Positions 3,001 through 46,368 of a DNA stretch of 64,000 nt are shown in pieces; the stretch's first letter is position 1; each line of letters opens with the position of its first letter. The DNA is from a virus. Lineage: Duplodnaviria > Heunggongvirae > Uroviricota > Caudoviricetes. The notes under the pieces were generated by a model that was not told the DNA's origin, made no database searches, and was given only the letters and a program-made list of their open reading frames with translations. The position numbers and the translations under genes are program-made. The stretch lies in IMG/VR virus record IMGVR_UViG_3300026980_000004. The stretch is one strand, 5' to 3'.

Positions 3001-4220
3001 GTGGTGTAACTAAAACACCAGCAACAACATCCCAAGATTTAGGGTCTGTTACATTTACAGTAACTGGTGATAATACAACAGTTGGACCAACTGAATTCTC
3101 AATAAATAATTTAATTTGGGAAGAGGGTATTACAACGAGTGGTGTAACCGAATACACATTGACTGGTTTAACATATGGTGAATATGAAATGTCAATCAGG
3201 GATGGTATTAATTGCCAATTATTGGAACCATTTGAAATTGAAAAAGATTGTACTTTATTGGAAATTACAGAAATTAATACAACAGATAAAATATCATCAA
3301 CGTTATTGGGTAGTATTGAAATTGTTGCAACTGGTGATACTAATATAACATATTCTATTGATGGTGGATTGAATTATTTTACAAATAATACGTTTACGGG
3401 TCTTGATATTGGTGATTATGATATTTATGTTAAAAATTCGATTGATTGTATTGTAACTGGTACAACATCAATAAGTGGAGTGTGTGATATAACCATTACC
3501 GATATTGAAGTTATTAATTGTACACCGAATGGATATGAAAGTAGACTTGATAGTGGTTTGATTTACGAAAATAATACATTATCAGTATTTTTAAATTATG
3601 ATTTTACAATTGATAATAATTTTAATAAATATGTAAGAGACAAGATTACAATAACAGAAACAACAACAAATGAGGTTATATTGGAAAAATGGATCGAATT
3701 TGATGTTGAGACTGGACAGGATACAATAGAATTGGGTATTGTTTGGGAATATGAAAATGTTCCAACCTATTCCAATTTTAATTTTGAAATAGCATATTTA
3801 TCAGAACCAGAAATATCTTGTGAGCCATTTACAACGCCATTACCAGCCGAAGTATTTAACCCAATACCAGAACAACCACAATTGCAAGTTGTGGCCGTAA
3901 ACGCATTAACAGGACCTTGTGGCATAGGTGGTGAAGATGATGTATATATTGGTGCTAGTGTTGAATTGAATGTTGCAACACCAAGTAGAATTGAAGTTGG
4001 TGTGGATGTTAAATATTTGGTTGATGGTGATACGAATTGTTCAAATCCTGGTATATTCCAAACTGTATATTTTGCAATTGAAGCTGGTGAAAAAATTGGT
4101 GAATTAAACGAATGTGATGGATTGTATGTTGAGAATTTATCACAAGTATGTGATAATGGAACTTGTATATCTTATATAAGTGATAGTAATGTTGATTTAA
4201 ATGGATTTGGTTGCCCATGA
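30..4220 (+). CDS. Large baseplate wedge-like structural protein (P2 gpI/T4 gp7-like segment, three small beta-repeat domains, SprB-like repeat)
   Basis: 1396 aa, TTG start. PDILVKNLAKVLGW...KSKGTRKSIETIFKLIGIP resembles Tail_P2_I-type wedge proteins; three VILNG/LVLNG..L....D[YF] repeats; GSIEIVATG...YSIDGG...FTGLDIGDYDIYVKNSIDC resembles a SprB repeat. Confidence 0.55.
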   Translation: MSKKRIIRDSIFNENVVNTSFSNPSTSTVYRLGEFTLDTNLDDRVIGDFTNKISSFSKEYTLETIGIDTIISQKIYETGNKLKINVDYNNIRSYSRYGSVEDLFKYTIKNIVEKFPYSIYLTSELNTGNINSITNFQYDEINNTSTFNIPVISIINKGNLIIDSTNFVENDIKNFNISKTKYVIWDFENPDTEYPIIDFSGNINTDSFITITAAGRVFDLTNSTLSKNFHIKPNKDEYNRIIYEFNDIEKYFLSNKTNEGFKFKLKVLNERAIDRFNNKSILWPTTDGYNIDYEDVIYNNFVNDLIKIGILYDEYKTDLIYRMYLPQSIKEFDLTSDSKLKKLIRTYGYNFDNIRKLIDGFATLNNLTYKKEGSIPDILVKNLAKVLGWNVNDILTEDDLMSKIFTTKTQDISNSLLPSEINIELWKRILINTKWFFKSKGTRKSIETIFKLIGIPEDFINLNEYVYLADKELNENERIDSTRTNVLGNVVVNDPSYDTNGYPIAPQENNQYYFQVSGNTDSGQTYINRFRENGFNIKTQEDNKKSWVYVENYHIRTDENSIYSSNDSRLVINTKEIDLGIDPSKALLFDIFRFNKSNNYPVCSNGISLSVLYLNVLSNPDQLNVFEIPDVPDGDIQVILNGIVLVENTDYTVTGVDNNIIEITKSGFNYINDVVTVTYVVNNTTNQVDYNIFKPTITSNGQTIITLPVEPSGDIQLVLNGYTLVNGKDFYINPNNRTQLILTNVNILTTDILSVMYINELSGLNTIKYSDNYTVSNYYNDKLFYNNYNNRYVFVSDYIIPNSANVKVILNGRTLVNNSDFTVNQSNKKQIIFDKKIKININDEINVFYLLNNSENQDCINLGIDINNIEFFEYVDKVYKNLINVRNRKIITNNRGGEYPTLSKIYDLYVKYNQNNRTYNGLYSFVKNFDNHFISFVDQLLPATTILRKSGLIVNNSILSKQKYKFIRGINDGAEYLSESLVYSCDLFGISGVTKTPATTSQDLGSVTFTVTGDNTTVGPTEFSINNLIWEEGITTSGVTEYTLTGLTYGEYEMSIRDGINCQLLEPFEIEKDCTLLEITEINTTDKISSTLLGSIEIVATGDTNITYSIDGGLNYFTNNTFTGLDIGDYDIYVKNSIDCIVTGTTSISGVCDITITDIEVINCTPNGYESRLDSGLIYENNTLSVFLNYDFTIDNNFNKYVRDKITITETTTNEVILEKWIEFDVETGQDTIELGIVWEYENVPTYSNFNFEIAYLSEPEISCEPFTTPLPAEVFNPIPEQPQLQVVAVNALTGPCGIGGEDDVYIGASVELNVATPSRIEVGVDVKYLVDGDTNCSNPGIFQTVYFAIEAGEKIGELNECDGLYVENLSQVCDNGTCISYISDSNVDLNGFGCP

Positions 4221-42034: not shown

Positions 42035-44809
42035 ATGCCAAGATTAAAAAAGAAAATAGAATCAAATATTAAAGCAATATACCCATCATCATTAATTGCA
42101 CAAAATTTTGCCGAGGGTGATGATTCTTTTCATGGTTATGTTTTATGGGATGTTAGTGATAATAAAAATATTACACACGAAAAAAGAGAAATTAAATCCG
42201 AATATAGTTATAGAACTGTAAAAGTAAATAGATTTACAGATTTTTCGTACTTGGATTTTGAAATCGAAAACCCAACAAAATATATGAATATTAGAGTCAT
42301 TTGGAATGTATTTCCATCTGATTATAATACTGAAAATATTTCATTGGTAAATAAATATATTAAAAATACATATGGTAACACACATGTTATTACACACCCA
42401 AAAGATTTTATTGTAACAGAAGAAATCGAAATTGAAAATAAGAGTGATTTAAAACTTGAAAACATTGTTTCAAAAGATGTTCAGCAAAAGATTTTTAAAA
42501 ATTATTTAGAGGAATTAGGTTGGGGAAATGATTTTATCCAAGATATATTTAAATTGGATGATGAAATTTCAAAAAGAGTTGTTAGTGGTGATGTCGAAAA
42601 CATTATATGGAAACCAATAAAAATTCAGGGAAGAAATTTTAGATCATATGAAAATATTGATTTGGATTTTAGAAATTATATTGGTACTACTCAAATAGGT
42701 GGAAAAAATAGGGGTGGTAAATCATCTATCATTCAACTATTAATGTATGTTTTGTATGGTAAAACTATTGAGACTGAAAAAACTCAAAAAAATGGTGATA
42801 ACCGATTTATTAACAATAAACTAGATGCTGATTTTTGTAATGGATATGCTGTTATTGAAGCAAATGGTGAATATTATGGTGTTTTTAGACAAACAAATAG
42901 AAAATGGAATAGAGGTAAAACAGAAATTACTGGATCACCTAGTATTGTAAAATATTATAAATTATCATCACCAGATGAAATATATTCTGAAAATAATGAA
43001 ATATCTGAAGATAATCAAAATCTATCCGAAGAAGATAGAATAAAAACACAAAAGGTAATCAATAAAATTATTGGTGATTATGATAATTTTAACAGACTTG
43101 TTTTAACAACTGCAGACACCCTAAATAGAATTTTATCTGTAAATAAAGCTGATTTTATTGATAATCTATTGTATGATTTAGGTTTGGATATTTTCGATAA
43201 AAAACTAGATGAATTCAAACAATATAAAAATGAGTATCAAAAAAATACAGAAAAACTTGTAATCAATATCGAATCAACAGAAGAAAAAATATTAAAATAT
43301 AAGGAAGAAATTGCAGATATTGAAAATGAAATTGGTGAAATAAAAGATGTAAAAATTAAGGAACTTGAAGAATCAATATCTAAAGGAGTAGATTTTAAAA
43401 ATGATTTAATTAAAAAACTTCATAAAATAAACAAAGATATTGAGACCCTAAACCCCGATGTTATTAATCAAAATATTAATAGATTTAATGATGATTTAAC
43501 AAATAAAAAAACAAAATTAAATACAAATCTTAATAAGATTAAAACACTAAGAGATACTTATGATAAAGAAAGATTAGAAAAATTAACCAATGAAAAAGAT
43601 GATTTTAAAACATTGGTATATAAAAATAAAGATTTGATTAATGGTAAGAAAGATCAAATAAGAGAGGTACAAGATGCTAAAAGTAAATTACAAACAAAAA
43701 TATTTTTAATTGAAAAAGAAATTAAATCGTTAAAGAGTGAAAATGATAATCTTGAACATAGCAAAACTTGTCCAACATGTAATCAAACATTAAGACCAGA
43801 AGATATTGATGTTATTAAAGTTAAAATAAATAATAATAATACTCTGATTAATGAAAAACAGTTAAATATTGATCACATTAATAATAGATTGCCCGATGCA
43901 GATCGAAAAATTGATGAAATTAATAAAGAAATTAAAAAGATAAATGATGAAATCGACCAACTAAATTTAGATATGGAAAAAACACTGGAAGATATTGGTG
44001 TTTTAACCAATCATAAAAATGAGGTTGATGAACGTGATAAATTGATTCTAATCAATAATACGATTAAAACAGAAATCGAAAATACAGAATTAAAAATTGA
44101 TAATGAAAACGCTAAATTAAACGAATATAATAATTCACTTAAACAAATTGAAGAGAACAAAAAGATTAATAATAAAATTAAATTATCAGAAGAAAGATTA
44201 GCTGTTCTTAACGAAGAAAGGGATAATCAAATATTAAATATTAGTAACCATAATAATAATATTAAGAATTTAGAAAATTCTATCAAAGAATCTAAAGAGA
44301 GTATTGATAAATTTAAAAAACAAGAATATACAGATAAAATATTTAAAACTTATCAATCTTTAATACATAGAGATGGAATACCATCAAAATTACTTAAAGA
44401 ACACTCAATACCAGTTATTAATAAAACACTTGGAAAACTATTGGAAAATGTTACATTTACAGTTTGGCTGGACCCAGATGATATTACACTGAAAATGGCT
44501 GATATTAGTAAAACAGATTCAGTTATTGATTGTATTTCAGGTTCTGGAATGGAAAGAACATTTGCAGCAATCGCATTTAAGTTTTGTTTAAATGAACTCA
44601 ATATTAAATCAAGACCATCTATCATTATATTGGATGAAGTAACGGGTAAATTGGTTGACGAATCTGTTGAATTATTCTTAGATTTACTAAATGTAATTAA
44701 GAAAAAAATACAGAATATTCTAATAATCGAACATACACATGATGTACAACCAGATTATTATATTGAGGTTCAAAAAAATGAAAAAGGAATATCTAAACTA
44801 ATTAAATAA
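42035..44809 (+). CDS. sbcC: SbcD C-terminal fragment fused to SbcC/Rad50-like ATPase
   Basis: N-terminal AIYPSSLIAQNF.E...HGYVLWD (SbcD end); Walker A GKNRGGKSS, zinc hook CPTC, signature SGSGMER, Walker B IIILDE. Confidence 0.85.
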   Translation: MPRLKKKIESNIKAIYPSSLIAQNFAEGDDSFHGYVLWDVSDNKNITHEKREIKSEYSYRTVKVNRFTDFSYLDFEIENPTKYMNIRVIWNVFPSDYNTENISLVNKYIKNTYGNTHVITHPKDFIVTEEIEIENKSDLKLENIVSKDVQQKIFKNYLEELGWGNDFIQDIFKLDDEISKRVVSGDVENIIWKPIKIQGRNFRSYENIDLDFRNYIGTTQIGGKNRGGKSSIIQLLMYVLYGKTIETEKTQKNGDNRFINNKLDADFCNGYAVIEANGEYYGVFRQTNRKWNRGKTEITGSPSIVKYYKLSSPDEIYSENNEISEDNQNLSEEDRIKTQKVINKIIGDYDNFNRLVLTTADTLNRILSVNKADFIDNLLYDLGLDIFDKKLDEFKQYKNEYQKNTEKLVINIESTEEKILKYKEEIADIENEIGEIKDVKIKELEESISKGVDFKNDLIKKLHKINKDIETLNPDVINQNINRFNDDLTNKKTKLNTNLNKIKTLRDTYDKERLEKLTNEKDDFKTLVYKNKDLINGKKDQIREVQDAKSKLQTKIFLIEKEIKSLKSENDNLEHSKTCPTCNQTLRPEDIDVIKVKINNNNTLINEKQLNIDHINNRLPDADRKIDEINKEIKKINDEIDQLNLDMEKTLEDIGVLTNHKNEVDERDKLILINNTIKTEIENTELKIDNENAKLNEYNNSLKQIEENKKINNKIKLSEERLAVLNEERDNQILNISNHNNNIKNLENSIKESKESIDKFKKQEYTDKIFKTYQSLIHRDGIPSKLLKEHSIPVINKTLGKLLENVTFTVWLDPDDITLKMADISKTDSVIDCISGSGMERTFAAIAFKFCLNELNIKSRPSIIILDEVTGKLVDESVELFLDLLNVIKKKIQNILIIEHTHDVQPDYYIEVQKNEKGISKLIK

Positions 44810-44877
44810 AATTTATAAAAAATAAGAGCTAATTCATGGAAAATATATTATTGAATTTGGGTGTTAAAAGGGATGAT

Positions 44878-44939
44878 GCATAACGATGTAGCTATGCCAT
44901 CGGCTGAGGAACGAAGCTGGGGTATAGCGTGTGTTGGCT
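44878..44939 (+). repeat. attC-like site 1 (62 bp)
   Basis: GCATAAC 44878-84; arms GCTATGCC(A)TCGGCT / AGCTGGGGTATAGC; GTTGGCT 44933-39. Confidence 0.7.
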
Positions 44940-44946
44940 AAATGAA

Positions 44947-45077
44947 TGCCAACGGACGAGTATATGATTTCGGTGGCGATTGATTGCAGGACTTTTCGCA
45001 TACTGACAAACTTTCAAGACTGCACAGTGGTTTAAATTAAGCAGTATAACCCCACTGAATTATATACATTGTTATGC
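44947..45077 (+). repeat. attC-like site 2 (131 bp)
   Basis: TGCCAAC; arms 44960-76 / 45052-67 (16 bp, 2 G-T, 1 bulge); GTTATGC 45071-77. Confidence 0.75.
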
Positions 45078-45089
45078 TGCGTTAATTGT

Positions 45090-45272
45090 ATGAGTAATTT
45101 AAGACTGAATATTAGAATACTAATGTGGCATATACAGATAAGCTACAATTGGAAAATAAGTGTAACCTATAATGACTACCATAAAGGATTAAATTATGGT
45201 TGGTTTGCTGTTTATGAATATAAAAGACTATTTGAAAGAAGTAGAAATTTTGATAGGGATAATGCAGCATAA
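45090..45272 (+). CDS. Cassette gene, 60-aa hypothetical
   Basis: ATG 45090; stop TAA lies inside the GCATAAC box; flanked by GTTATGCTGC/GCAGCATAAC. Confidence 0.6.
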   Translation: MSNLRLNIRILMWHIQISYNWKISVTYNDYHKGLNYGWFAVYEYKRLFERSRNFDRDNAA

Positions 45273-45394
45273 CGGTACTCAGCTATGAATAGTGCGATTT
45301 AAAAACAAAAAATATAAAATTATGGCAAAATCAAATAAAGAATTACAGGATGAAATAGATAATAGCAGAGCATTATTTATAGCTGATGTTATGC
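45267..45394 (+). repeat. attC-like site 3 (128 bp)
   Basis: GCATAAC; arms 45279-95 / 45370-86 (17 bp, 2 G-T); GTTATGC 45388-94. Confidence 0.8.
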
Positions 45395-45537
45395 GCTGTT
45401 TGAAATCTGACCCTGATGCAAATGATGGAACTAAAAATTATAAAGAATTACCCCAATATTTGAGTGAATTAATAGATAAGGATGGGAGTTTAATGGGTGG
45501 GTTAATTATCGCAATTGAACACTATCTGGAAAAATAG
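45322..45537 (+). CDS. Cassette gene, 71-aa hypothetical starting inside the site 3 loop
   Basis: A-rich leader then ATG 45322; reads through the right arm and GTT as ..FIADV|MRC. Confidence 0.65.
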   Translation: MAKSNKELQDEIDNSRALFIADVMRCLKSDPDANDGTKNYKELPQYLSELIDKDGSLMGGLIIAIEHYLEK

Positions 45538-45538
45538 C

Positions 45539-45746
45539 GCATAACGTAGGTGGCTAAACGCTGATTTTTAACCGATTTAAAAGACGAAAACAATGAAAGA
45601 TATTAAATGTGTAAATGGATGTAAGTACTTTAATGGTGGTGAAATTAAACACCACGAAGATTGCCCACACTATCCTGAATCAATGAGTAAAATGTATGAT
45701 GACCTCAAAAGCGAGGTTAAAAATTTGCGTTTAGCTAATGTTAGGC
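45539..45746 (+). repeat. attC-like site 4 (208 bp)
   Basis: GCATAAC; arms 45551-73 / 45715-37 (23 positions, 2 G-T, 1 T-T); GTTAGGC 45740-46. Confidence 0.8.
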
Positions 45747-45844
45747 TTTCGTTGCTTAATAAGGTTCAGGAAATAGCATTTGGCGATGGTTCTGCTCAGG
45801 AGCGTATGGTAGATATAAAGGCATTATTCAGCAATGAAGTCTAA
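45593..45844 (+). CDS. Cassette gene, 83-aa hypothetical (Cys/His-rich N-terminus) starting inside the site 4 loop
   Basis: CVNGC...HHEDCPH; reads through as ..LRLANV|RLS; stop TAA inside GTCTAAC. Confidence 0.65.
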   Translation: MKDIKCVNGCKYFNGGEIKHHEDCPHYPESMSKMYDDLKSEVKNLRLANVRLSLLNKVQEIAFGDGSAQERMVDIKALFSNEV

Positions 45845-45960
45845 CGGTTTGTATATGGCACGTAGCCATTCACTAACCTAAGTAGAAGAGAAACAAATTT
45901 AATAACCGCACATAGTTTCAAAAATAGCCTAACAGCTATGTGCTATATACTTTGTTAGGC
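45839..45960 (+). repeat. attC-like site 5 (122 bp)
   Basis: GTCTAAC; arms 45851-66 / 45935-50 (16 bp, 2 G-T); GTTAGGC 45954-60. Confidence 0.8.
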
Positions 45961-45970
45961 TTAGTTGATT

Positions 45971-46192
45971 ATGGAACTTACAACAGAACAAATATTAGAG
46001 ATGAACGAAAAGCGTTTTATTTCTCATAGCACTGGAATGAAATGTGCAAAGTGTGGTAGTGATTTTAAAGTAAACAATAGGCACTTACTACCATTTGAAT
46101 TTGAGAAACTTAATGACACAATTGGTAAGGTTTGGATACCTTGTCCAAGATGCGATGAAAAGTATGATTTAGGGATATGTAGGCACAATTAA
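45971..46192 (+). CDS. Cassette gene, 73-aa zinc-ribbon protein
   Basis: CAKC...CPRC; flanked by GTTAGGCTTA/TAAGCCTAAC. Confidence 0.65.
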   Translation: MELTTEQILEMNEKRFISHSTGMKCAKCGSDFKVNNRHLLPFEFEKLNDTIGKVWIPCPRCDEKYDLGICRHN

Positions 46193-46368
46193 GCCTAACT
46201 ATTATATAGATATAATAGTTCACAACTAACTGAAAATAAAACACTTAAATCATGAAAAAGATTGATTATTACGAAATTTAAAAACAAAAATTGAAGTAAT
46301 ATGGTTATTTAAAATATTACATTAACTTTTTTCTATATTAACTATTTATATATACTAATCAAAGTATT

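Follow-up and report, generated by a model that had tools for sequence, protein, structure and literature searches.

In the stretch of phage DNA analysed here (the window, 64,000 nucleotides of the Caudoviricetes record IMGVR_UViG_3300026980_000004), positions 44878-46199 form a putative integron-like array of five cassettes, in which genes can begin inside the loop of a hairpin recombination site and be read in frame through its GTT box. The window belongs to a complete virus record of 265,845 bp that is AT-rich and whose ends overlap by 97 bp. We consider it probable that the array is made up of whole-gene cassettes that cross over at AA|C and carry the recombination site at the 5' end of the gene. 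A cassette of this kind would run from the C of one ..TAAC box through the AA of the next, the five together covering 44884-46199, in the order spacer, 5' arm, loop, 3' arm, GTT, gene body and stop codon (often supplied by the TAA of the box that follows). The hairpin site lies at the 5' end of its own gene and on the coding strand, the mirror image of the classical cassette. With the site placed in the front of the gene, the loop has room for an A-rich region of translation initiation and for the opening 13-49 codons, and the 3' arm and GTT box are read as protein (..NIADV..).

The array stands out within the window. All nine matches to GCMTAAC in the 64 kb are found inside 44878-46199 with strands alternating: AAC boxes begin at 44878, 45267, 45539, 45927 and 46193, GTT boxes (matches on the opposite strand) at 45071, 45388, 45740 and 45954, and an additional AAC box, GTCTAAC, begins at 45839. 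Two of the sites have genes starting in the loop. Site 3 (45267-45394, + strand, 128 bp) consists of GCATAAC, a 5-nt spacer, a 17-nt arm, the loop, a second 17-nt arm, 1 nt and GTTATGC, with arms (45279-45295 and 45370-45386) that are 88% complementary over 17 nt. Its loop contains an A-rich leader, the ATG at 45322 and the first codons of orfB (45322-45537, + strand, 71 aa), of which GTT 45388-45390 is codon 23 (..FIADV/MRC..), directly followed by an in-frame ATG. Site 4 (45539-45746, + strand, 208 bp) consists of GCATAAC, a spacer, a 21-22-nt arm, the loop, the second arm, TAAT and GTTAGGC; its arms (45553-45573 and 45715-45735, 21 nt) are 90% complementary and its loop contains a leader, the ATG at 45593 and approximately 40 codons of orfC. 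orfC (45593-45844, + strand, 83 aa) has a Cys/His-rich N-terminal half, encoded by the 49 codons ahead of GTT, and a conserved 33-residue C-terminal tail; GTT 45740-45742 is codon 50 (..RLANV/RLS..) and the stop codon is the TAA of the GTCTAAC box. When the 1732 AAC/GTT pairs in the genome were ranked by arm duplex energy, the top three were 45539-45746, 45839-45960 and 45267-45394, so that sites 3 and 4, the two in which a gene starts in the loop, rank third and first. The two ends of individual cassettes are also complementary to each other (inverted repeats I18, I19 and I25, each 14 nt at 93% in the window), and this chain continues along the main array of the same genome, which is described below.

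An initial annotation had proposed that the open reading frames (ORFs) at 45322 (22 codons ahead of GTT) and 45593 (49 codons) start in the loop and read GTT as valine, and that the DNA is at once structure and protein. The coordinates and frames hold, and a hairpin arm is indeed coding sequence. A third ORF had been included in that proposal: a 15-aa ORF (MENILLNLGVKRDDA, 44836-44883, + strand) located 5' of the first AAC box. Its GV/KR junction is in frame (GTT 44863-44865) and its tail resembles the 3' end of orfA (repeat D9), but its GTTAAAA box lacks inner arms and is not among the sites called, and the ORF was rejected as a third site.

The overlap of gene and site recurs at approximately 80 sites in more than 30 phage contigs. 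Sites were collected from 40 related loci in addition to the window and the main array, and were kept if their outer boxes pair with the box of the neighbouring cassette, which gave 185 unique sites. An ATG-initiated ORF begins in the loop and crosses GTT at 80 of these; at 10 the ORF starts 5' of the AAC box, and at 95 there is no crossing ORF and the gene usually starts 16-36 nt past GTT. GTT is itself a codon (frame 0, Val) at 58 of the 80 loop-starting sites, with 14 sites in frame 2 (xxG-TTA) and 8 in frame 1. Counted by sequence cluster, frame 0 accounts for 44 of 58 (p = 4e-11), and the frame of GTT is thus far from random across sites, in keeping with the in-frame junction first noted in the window. 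The frame-0 loops are either 103-128 nt (13-36 codons ahead of GTT) or 173-194 nt (41-49 codons) in length, orfB and orfC being one example each of the short and long classes. Over all sites, loop sizes fall into classes of approximately 40, 80, 117 and 185 nt, enclosed by inner arms of 15-23 bp (the L''/L' hairpin with a variable loop), and the 20 nt ahead of loop ATGs are 53% A (n=80). According to the consensus, frames 1 and 2 would be blocked by stop codons of the conserved arm and box at only roughly one third of sites, so the frame bias must also involve common descent or selection. We suggest that the preference for Val would arise mainly from common descent of leader-bearing hairpin modules together with stops in the other frames, and that it would not be needed for each recombination. 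Some frame-2 sites (including L028 1548-1662 and L014 5285-5406) have lipoprotein-type signal peptides (..LLAVVLSSCG..) that span the GTT box, with the charged start in the loop and the hydrophobic part behind GTT.

It is very unlikely that the loop starts go unused, with translation beginning at GTT or beyond and the upstream open frame being a by-product of conserved DNA. Such a reading would suit the in-frame ATG right after GTT in orfB (GTTATGC) and the V/M junction at about 12 of the 58 frame-0 sites. It would also suit the short leaders, whose 18 synonymous versus 96 non-synonymous codon differences indicate that they are barely constrained as peptides, and the leaderless sites of the same size class, which give similar pseudo-peptides (..PLFWVYA/V..), though stop-interrupted ones. 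In orfC, however, the next ATG is 22 codons past GTT and would leave only 12 codons; homologues keep the entire orfC-type ORF, and P0002-P0004 and P0006-P0008 show protein-level conservation of its 49-codon N-terminal half. Most junctions read V/S, V/I or V/R and so offer no start codon, and the lipoprotein signal peptides begin in the loop. Furthermore, the leaders are A-rich, as expected in hosts that do not use Shine-Dalgarno sequences (Bacteroidota), and an independent gene caller chose the same starts.

The coding strand is also the strand that folds better. For site 3, the predicted energy is -12.9 kcal/mol on the + strand (z -2.44) versus -7.5 kcal/mol on the - strand (z -0.39), and for site 4 the values are -22.5 and -18.9 kcal/mol, respectively. 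Across sites, arm mismatches comprise 289 G.T on the coding strand versus 32 A.C. The spacers are asymmetric (5-6 nt after AAC, 1-3 nt before GTT), the outer (R) stem reaches approximately 11 positions in the consensus, and the boxes are flanked as ..(A/C)TAAC-G and T-GTTA(T/G) (185 sites, with AAC and GTT invariant by construction). This is a partial match to the canonical RYYYAAC consensus, as position -2 of the box, a Y in that consensus, is A in 63% of sites. The ORFs are encoded by the better-folding strand and lie within the site or downstream of it, not upstream on the non-folding (top) strand as in the classical arrangement. By analogy with IntI acting on the attC bottom strand, the recombinase would cut the folded coding strand at AA|C, and with a cut at this position the cassettes would move as whole genes with their own starts. 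Double-strand Xer sites of the dif-module type were considered and rejected because the spacers are unequal (5-6 versus 1-3 nt) and every cassette has arms of its own. A shufflon or other multiple-inversion system was likewise rejected, as all site-to-site ORFs of at least 40 aa in 45060-46200 are on the + strand.

The 266-kb genome holds a single tyrosine recombinase gene, encoding a 267-aa Xer/IntI-like protein. This protein falls between archaeal XerA and integron integrase, below the NCBIfam cut-offs of both: it scores 177 bits against XerA_Arch (cut-off 220) and 158 bits against integrase_gron (cut-off 265). The second profile is matched only over positions 5-207 of 315, and the PDB match to IntI4 ends at residue 172. 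Upstream of the gene and on the same strand is the main array, a row of approximately 35-40 small ORFs split by AAC..GTT hairpin sites; many of these likewise have their start in the loop, with ..LNIADV.. encoded across the site. The genome has three platforms that terminate in ..AAC followed by the 12-mer TATTATATA, 52 nt and ATGAAAAA. The first (genome 263821, - strand) carries the full recombinase gene, the second (genome 243958, - strand) carries a stub, and the third, which is decayed (window 46197, + strand), forms the end of the window array (46193-46281): GCCTAAC at 46193-46199, the attI-like 12-mer, 52 nt and a nine-codon stub, MKKIDYYEI, at 46252-46281. The same layout of AAC, docking site and recombinase start is found in at least 20 related contigs. 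As for an attI site, the docking site is at the 5' side of the recombinase gene and cassettes vary at a fixed junction. With six AAC boxes in 44878-46199 and the sole genomic Phage_integrase match approximately 68 kb away, the window array has the composition of a cluster of attC sites lacking integron-integrases (CALIN). One cassette of the main array (genome 3200-2900, - strand) has a 71-aa gene wholly in the loop between the inner arms, and behind it the GTT..AAC interval is an empty 38-nt hairpin, indicating that cargo can occupy either hairpin interval of a cassette.

Docking junctions, shared units and the strand asymmetry described above together favour a crossover at AA|C on the coding strand over one at G|TT. 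First, arrays end with AAC directly joined to the docking site beside the recombinase start, with no hairpin or GTT between. In contigs L007 and L018, attI and the recombinase start are 97-99% identical and the sequences are unrelated from 13 nt left of AAC; L004 and L005 show the same junction pattern. Second, units shared between phages at 86-100% identity extend from AAC to AAC, with the upstream hairpin and without the downstream one (for example, 91% for the main array and L030, 93% for L016 and L028 and 96% for L035 and L027). The two best pairs have identities of 0.86-0.95 in the upstream hairpin module, versus 0.64 for the 130 nt past the stop codon and a background of 0.55 for random module pairs. 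The pattern extends to the genes of the window: a homologue of orfB (L015 3300-3570) is 64-65% identical across both halves and has the same flanking boxes, and the entire AAC-to-AAC unit of orfC is found in the contig of an unrelated Mu-like phage (L077) with 88% protein identity. No high-identity unit from GTT to GTT was found among the shared units compared. Of the two outcomes that had been foreseen for the window, whole genes moving with their own start or fusions made at G|TT, the first is therefore favoured.

The history of orfC is more complex. Its tail, the 33 residues that follow V, recurs with 67-94% identity in at least 16 protein clusters, which are distinct at a 50% identity threshold. 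The proteins in these clusters have unrelated N-terminal halves, to which the tail is joined at V or within a few residues of it. The Cys/His-rich half of orfC itself is found with three other C-terminal partners (P0004, P0006 and P0007). The initial annotation had suggested asking whether the N- and C-terminal halves of such proteins have different partners, and for orfC they do. Comparison of five tail-gene DNAs showed that likeness to the window begins within a few nt of GTT in L081 and L075. L079 matches orfC in arms, leader and tail and differs from it in the loop interior alone. A copy of the tail in an Aquimarina prophage is without arms and GTT, and its V is replaced by T. Divergence of the tail is mostly at third codon positions and synonymous, which points to a real, selected peptide and led us to reject a conserved non-coding element that merely happens to be translated; the resemblance of the tail to giant RTX-repeat proteins was put down to low complexity. 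As each half of orfC is found with several partners, the halves must have been re-paired at GTT over evolutionary time. Recent movement looks AAC-bounded, and the older history includes re-pairing at GTT. Candidate origins of this re-pairing are rare recombination of the other strand, the first making of the cassettes and ordinary domain fusion.

Two readings give GTT a role in exchange. According to the more sweeping of these, crossover takes place on the non-coding strand, at G|TT in the box downstream, a hairpin supplies start and leader to a body that has no start of its own, and each rearrangement makes an in-frame fusion. Frame 0 at 58 of 80 loop-starting ORFs (44 of 58 clusters), the two-way partner exchange of orfC and a pair of genes with the same body from V and different leaders (L015_1935 and L031_8663) are consistent with such a crossover. 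Nevertheless, we consider it unlikely: arrays end at AAC and attI with no hairpin or GTT, the cassette-variable junctions at attI are at AAC, and the shared units include no high-identity one bounded by GTT. In addition, L079 differs from orfC in the loop interior alone and the non-coding strand folds worse. Moreover, modules in frames 2 and 1 (14 and 8 sites) are mixed with those in frame 0 inside single arrays, so that exchange at GTT would often cause a frameshift. The claim that every rearrangement would yield an in-frame chimera was therefore not borne out, given the second family reading xxG-TTA, the half of the sites without a crossing ORF (95 of 185) and the barely constrained short leaders. 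According to the more modest reading, GTT is a second and rarer exchange point, used for example in recombination of the other strand, at which the loop start and N-terminal domain are re-paired in frame with the body. This is possible, though doubtful. The initial annotation as a whole is partly supported; its combinatorial generator of microproteins is not what rearrangement routinely yields, and stands as a minority reading with real evidence at the level of the orfC family.

Several observations weigh against the preferred model of whole-gene cassettes cut at AA|C. Hairpin modules alone (AAC to GTTA) are 75-94% identical between cassettes that have different bodies on either side. In other cases it is the body that is shared, beginning exactly at GTT, and the upstream modules that are unrelated, which indicates that AAC has not been the sole historical junction; for example, the bodies of L015_1935 and L031_8663 are 66% identical from V onward, and similarity in the MELRKF gene family starts at GTT behind different hairpins. 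The sites were found by folding the coding strand with G.U allowed, which somewhat favours the G.T asymmetry. Extrahelical bases are rare, with only 36 bulged bases in 185 sites, and approximately 50 residues of IntI are absent from the 267-aa recombinase; the mechanism is accordingly proposed by analogy. Outside the 12-mer and its spacing, the stub and attI of the window are only weakly similar to the main platform. Finally, the position of the cut at AA|C is inferred, as no recombination event was observed.

Other observations concern the orfC family and the GTT junction. A module of approximately 33 residues (..LSLLxKVKEIAFGDGSAQERMVDIKALF..; P0001:50-83, A2, P0033-P0040) ends many small proteins of flavobacterial phages and of one Aquimarina prophage. 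Lone orfC-family cassettes with their boxes and arms complete are present at L077 3948-4252, L078 3948-4252 and L079 2948-3249, where they look like orphan insertions amid the ordinary genes of unrelated smaller phages with a Mu-like portal and terminase. In L075, consecutive genes end in the same motif of approximately 25 nt (..ATAAC TACTSGCTAAGTATAACGC.., 2940-2965 and 3250-3275), which is a different intergenic repeat that also has TAAC boxes. A gene family starting MELRKFIATTIREYLNE (L014 5622-5799, L023 5921-6099 and 8436-8610, and L031 9306-9481) has a conserved non-coding 5' region of approximately 125 nt that begins exactly at GTT behind different hairpin modules and contains a hairpin and an AT-rich promoter-like stretch.

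The hairpins might instead be regulatory elements acting at the transcript level, with cassettes shuffled by homologous recombination between repeats and no site-specific crossover. The model for this would be the promoter early stem-loops (PeSL) of T4-type phages, the closest analogue from phages, which are conserved stem-loops that similarly flank small variable ORFs in plastic genome regions and mark swap points. PeSL consist of promoter and terminator motifs, act via homologous recombination and are documented to mediate swapping in large myoviruses (PMC2839356, PMC4122927). The window array adjoins gp46/gp47-type genes, its stems tolerate G.U on the sense strand, and modules conserved at 75-94% between otherwise unrelated cassettes would be good substrates for homologous exchange. 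Even so, this explanation is quite unlikely. Unlike PeSL, the phage array has (nearly) invariant TAAC/GTTA cores, complementarity of approximately 8-14 nt between a cassette's own ends, which homologous exchange would not maintain, and a dedicated tyrosine recombinase with a conserved docking site located, in more than 20 phages, precisely where the array ends. The breaks at attI are sharp, within a few nt of AAC. In contrast to the terminator-like PeSL, the array stems are inside coding sequence and without T runs (by eye), and by-eye inspection, the only kind made, noticed no conserved promoter in the loops.

The remaining parts of the window array resemble sites 3 and 4 to differing degrees. 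Cassette 1 (44878-44953, + strand) contains no ORF: GCATAAC (44878-44884) and a short hairpin lead to GTTGGCT (44933-44939) and a mini hairpin closed by TGCCAAC (44947-44953). It can be regarded as a mini cassette, a 62-bp hairpin site followed by an empty 21-nt GTTGGC..GCCAAC hairpin; its arm duplex energy is -21.4 kcal/mol, and it folds at -12.3 on the + strand (z -2.65) versus -9.2 on the - strand. Cassette 2 (44947-45273, + strand) has a leaderless hairpin site (44947-45077, with GTTATGC at 45071) followed by orfA (45090-45272, + strand), which begins 19 nt past GTT and whose stop codon TAA is within GCATAAC 45267-45273. The two ends of this cassette form inverted repeat I18 (45071-45084 and 45260-45273; 14 nt, 93% complementary). 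Site 5 (45839-45960, + strand, 122 bp) is also leaderless, with GTCTAAC, 16-nt arms (45851-45866 and 45935-45950) and GTTAGGC at 45954, and is homologous to a site of the main array from AAC through GTTAG. It precedes orfD (45971-46192, + strand), which begins 17 nt past GTT and encodes a zinc-ribbon-like protein of 73 aa.

The array is flanked by a gp46-like SMC/AAA gene on one side and a lysozyme gene on the other, and its G+C content (0.30-0.41 at 44800-46300) is above that of the surrounding window (0.20-0.27). The same array in the same neighbourhood is present in seven independent contigs that bear orfC, with no array variants among them. In related complete genomes, in which gp46 is 29-32% identical, there is no array behind gp46; relatives of the lysozyme gene are only about 50% identical. 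Scans of the window for tRNAs and Rfam families gave no match, nor did a blastn search against GenBank phages. There were no matches of orfA-orfC to Pfam and PHROGs, and orfD gave weak matches alone, to zinc-ribbon and unknown-function families.

The phage array shares many properties with integrons. Its cassettes are small and promoterless-looking, with imperfect hairpin sites, outer AAC/GTT boxes, inner arms and complementary ends; one strand folds better, the docking site is 5' of a tyrosine recombinase gene, and there are satellite clusters without a recombinase. Seen from the recombinase gene, the geometry would be that of an ordinary integron, the folding strand corresponding to the classical bottom strand and the direction of the genes being reversed. 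The differences are as follows. The phage genes are on the folding strand and point towards the recombinase, with the site at the 5' end of the gene, and in approximately 40% of sites the start codon and 13-49 codons are inside the loop. The stems contain G.T mismatches, not extrahelical bases, the box consensus is ..ATAAC / GTTA(T/G), not RYYYAAC / GTTRRRY, and the 267-aa recombinase has no extra IntI segment.

Partial parallels to this arrangement occur in known integrons. Reverse-oriented cassettes in sedentary chromosomal integrons (such as Vibrio toxin-antitoxin cassettes) have the gene opposite to the usual attC strand and carry their own expression signals; these are exceptions within an array, and the ORF start is not inside the attC loop. 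In the phages, by contrast, the whole array is reversed and the site overlaps the front of the gene. In attI1 of class 1 integrons (ORF-11, and fusions of cassettes to attI codons), the site supplies a start or leading codons. Unlike attI1, with its single attI or occasional fusions, the phage arrangement makes the leader part of each cassette's own hairpin. Phage genomes with integrons, single attC sites and CALINs have been published, with IntI1 recombination assays and a Polaribacter phage among those listed (Qi et al. 2023, PMC9892861). In the literature searched we found no account of cassettes whose hairpins regularly enclose the start codon and leader, or of whole arrays with genes on the folding strand. 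The cassettes with a built-in leader hairpin appear to extend the published phage integrons and CALINs, and the gene start within the loop would be the new part.

Textbook integron cassettes keep the gene apart from the recombination site, whereas in these large marine phages the site forms part of the front of the gene and supplies the start codon and leader. For annotation, integron finders that assume an ORF upstream of attC could misplace both cassette boundaries and gene starts. The array also shows that an Xer-like recombinase without the extra IntI segment can be associated with hairpin sites based on G.T mismatches. As cassettes are found singly in unrelated flavobacterial phages, they may represent a shared pool of mobile microprotein genes. 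Finally, the phage array provides a concrete case in which to ask whether protein halves can be joined in frame through a recombination site. If GTT is a second exchange point, the orfC family would be its product and the bias towards Val would be kept by selection for compatible fusions; these phages would then possess a natural, site-specific device for shuffling the domains of microproteins.

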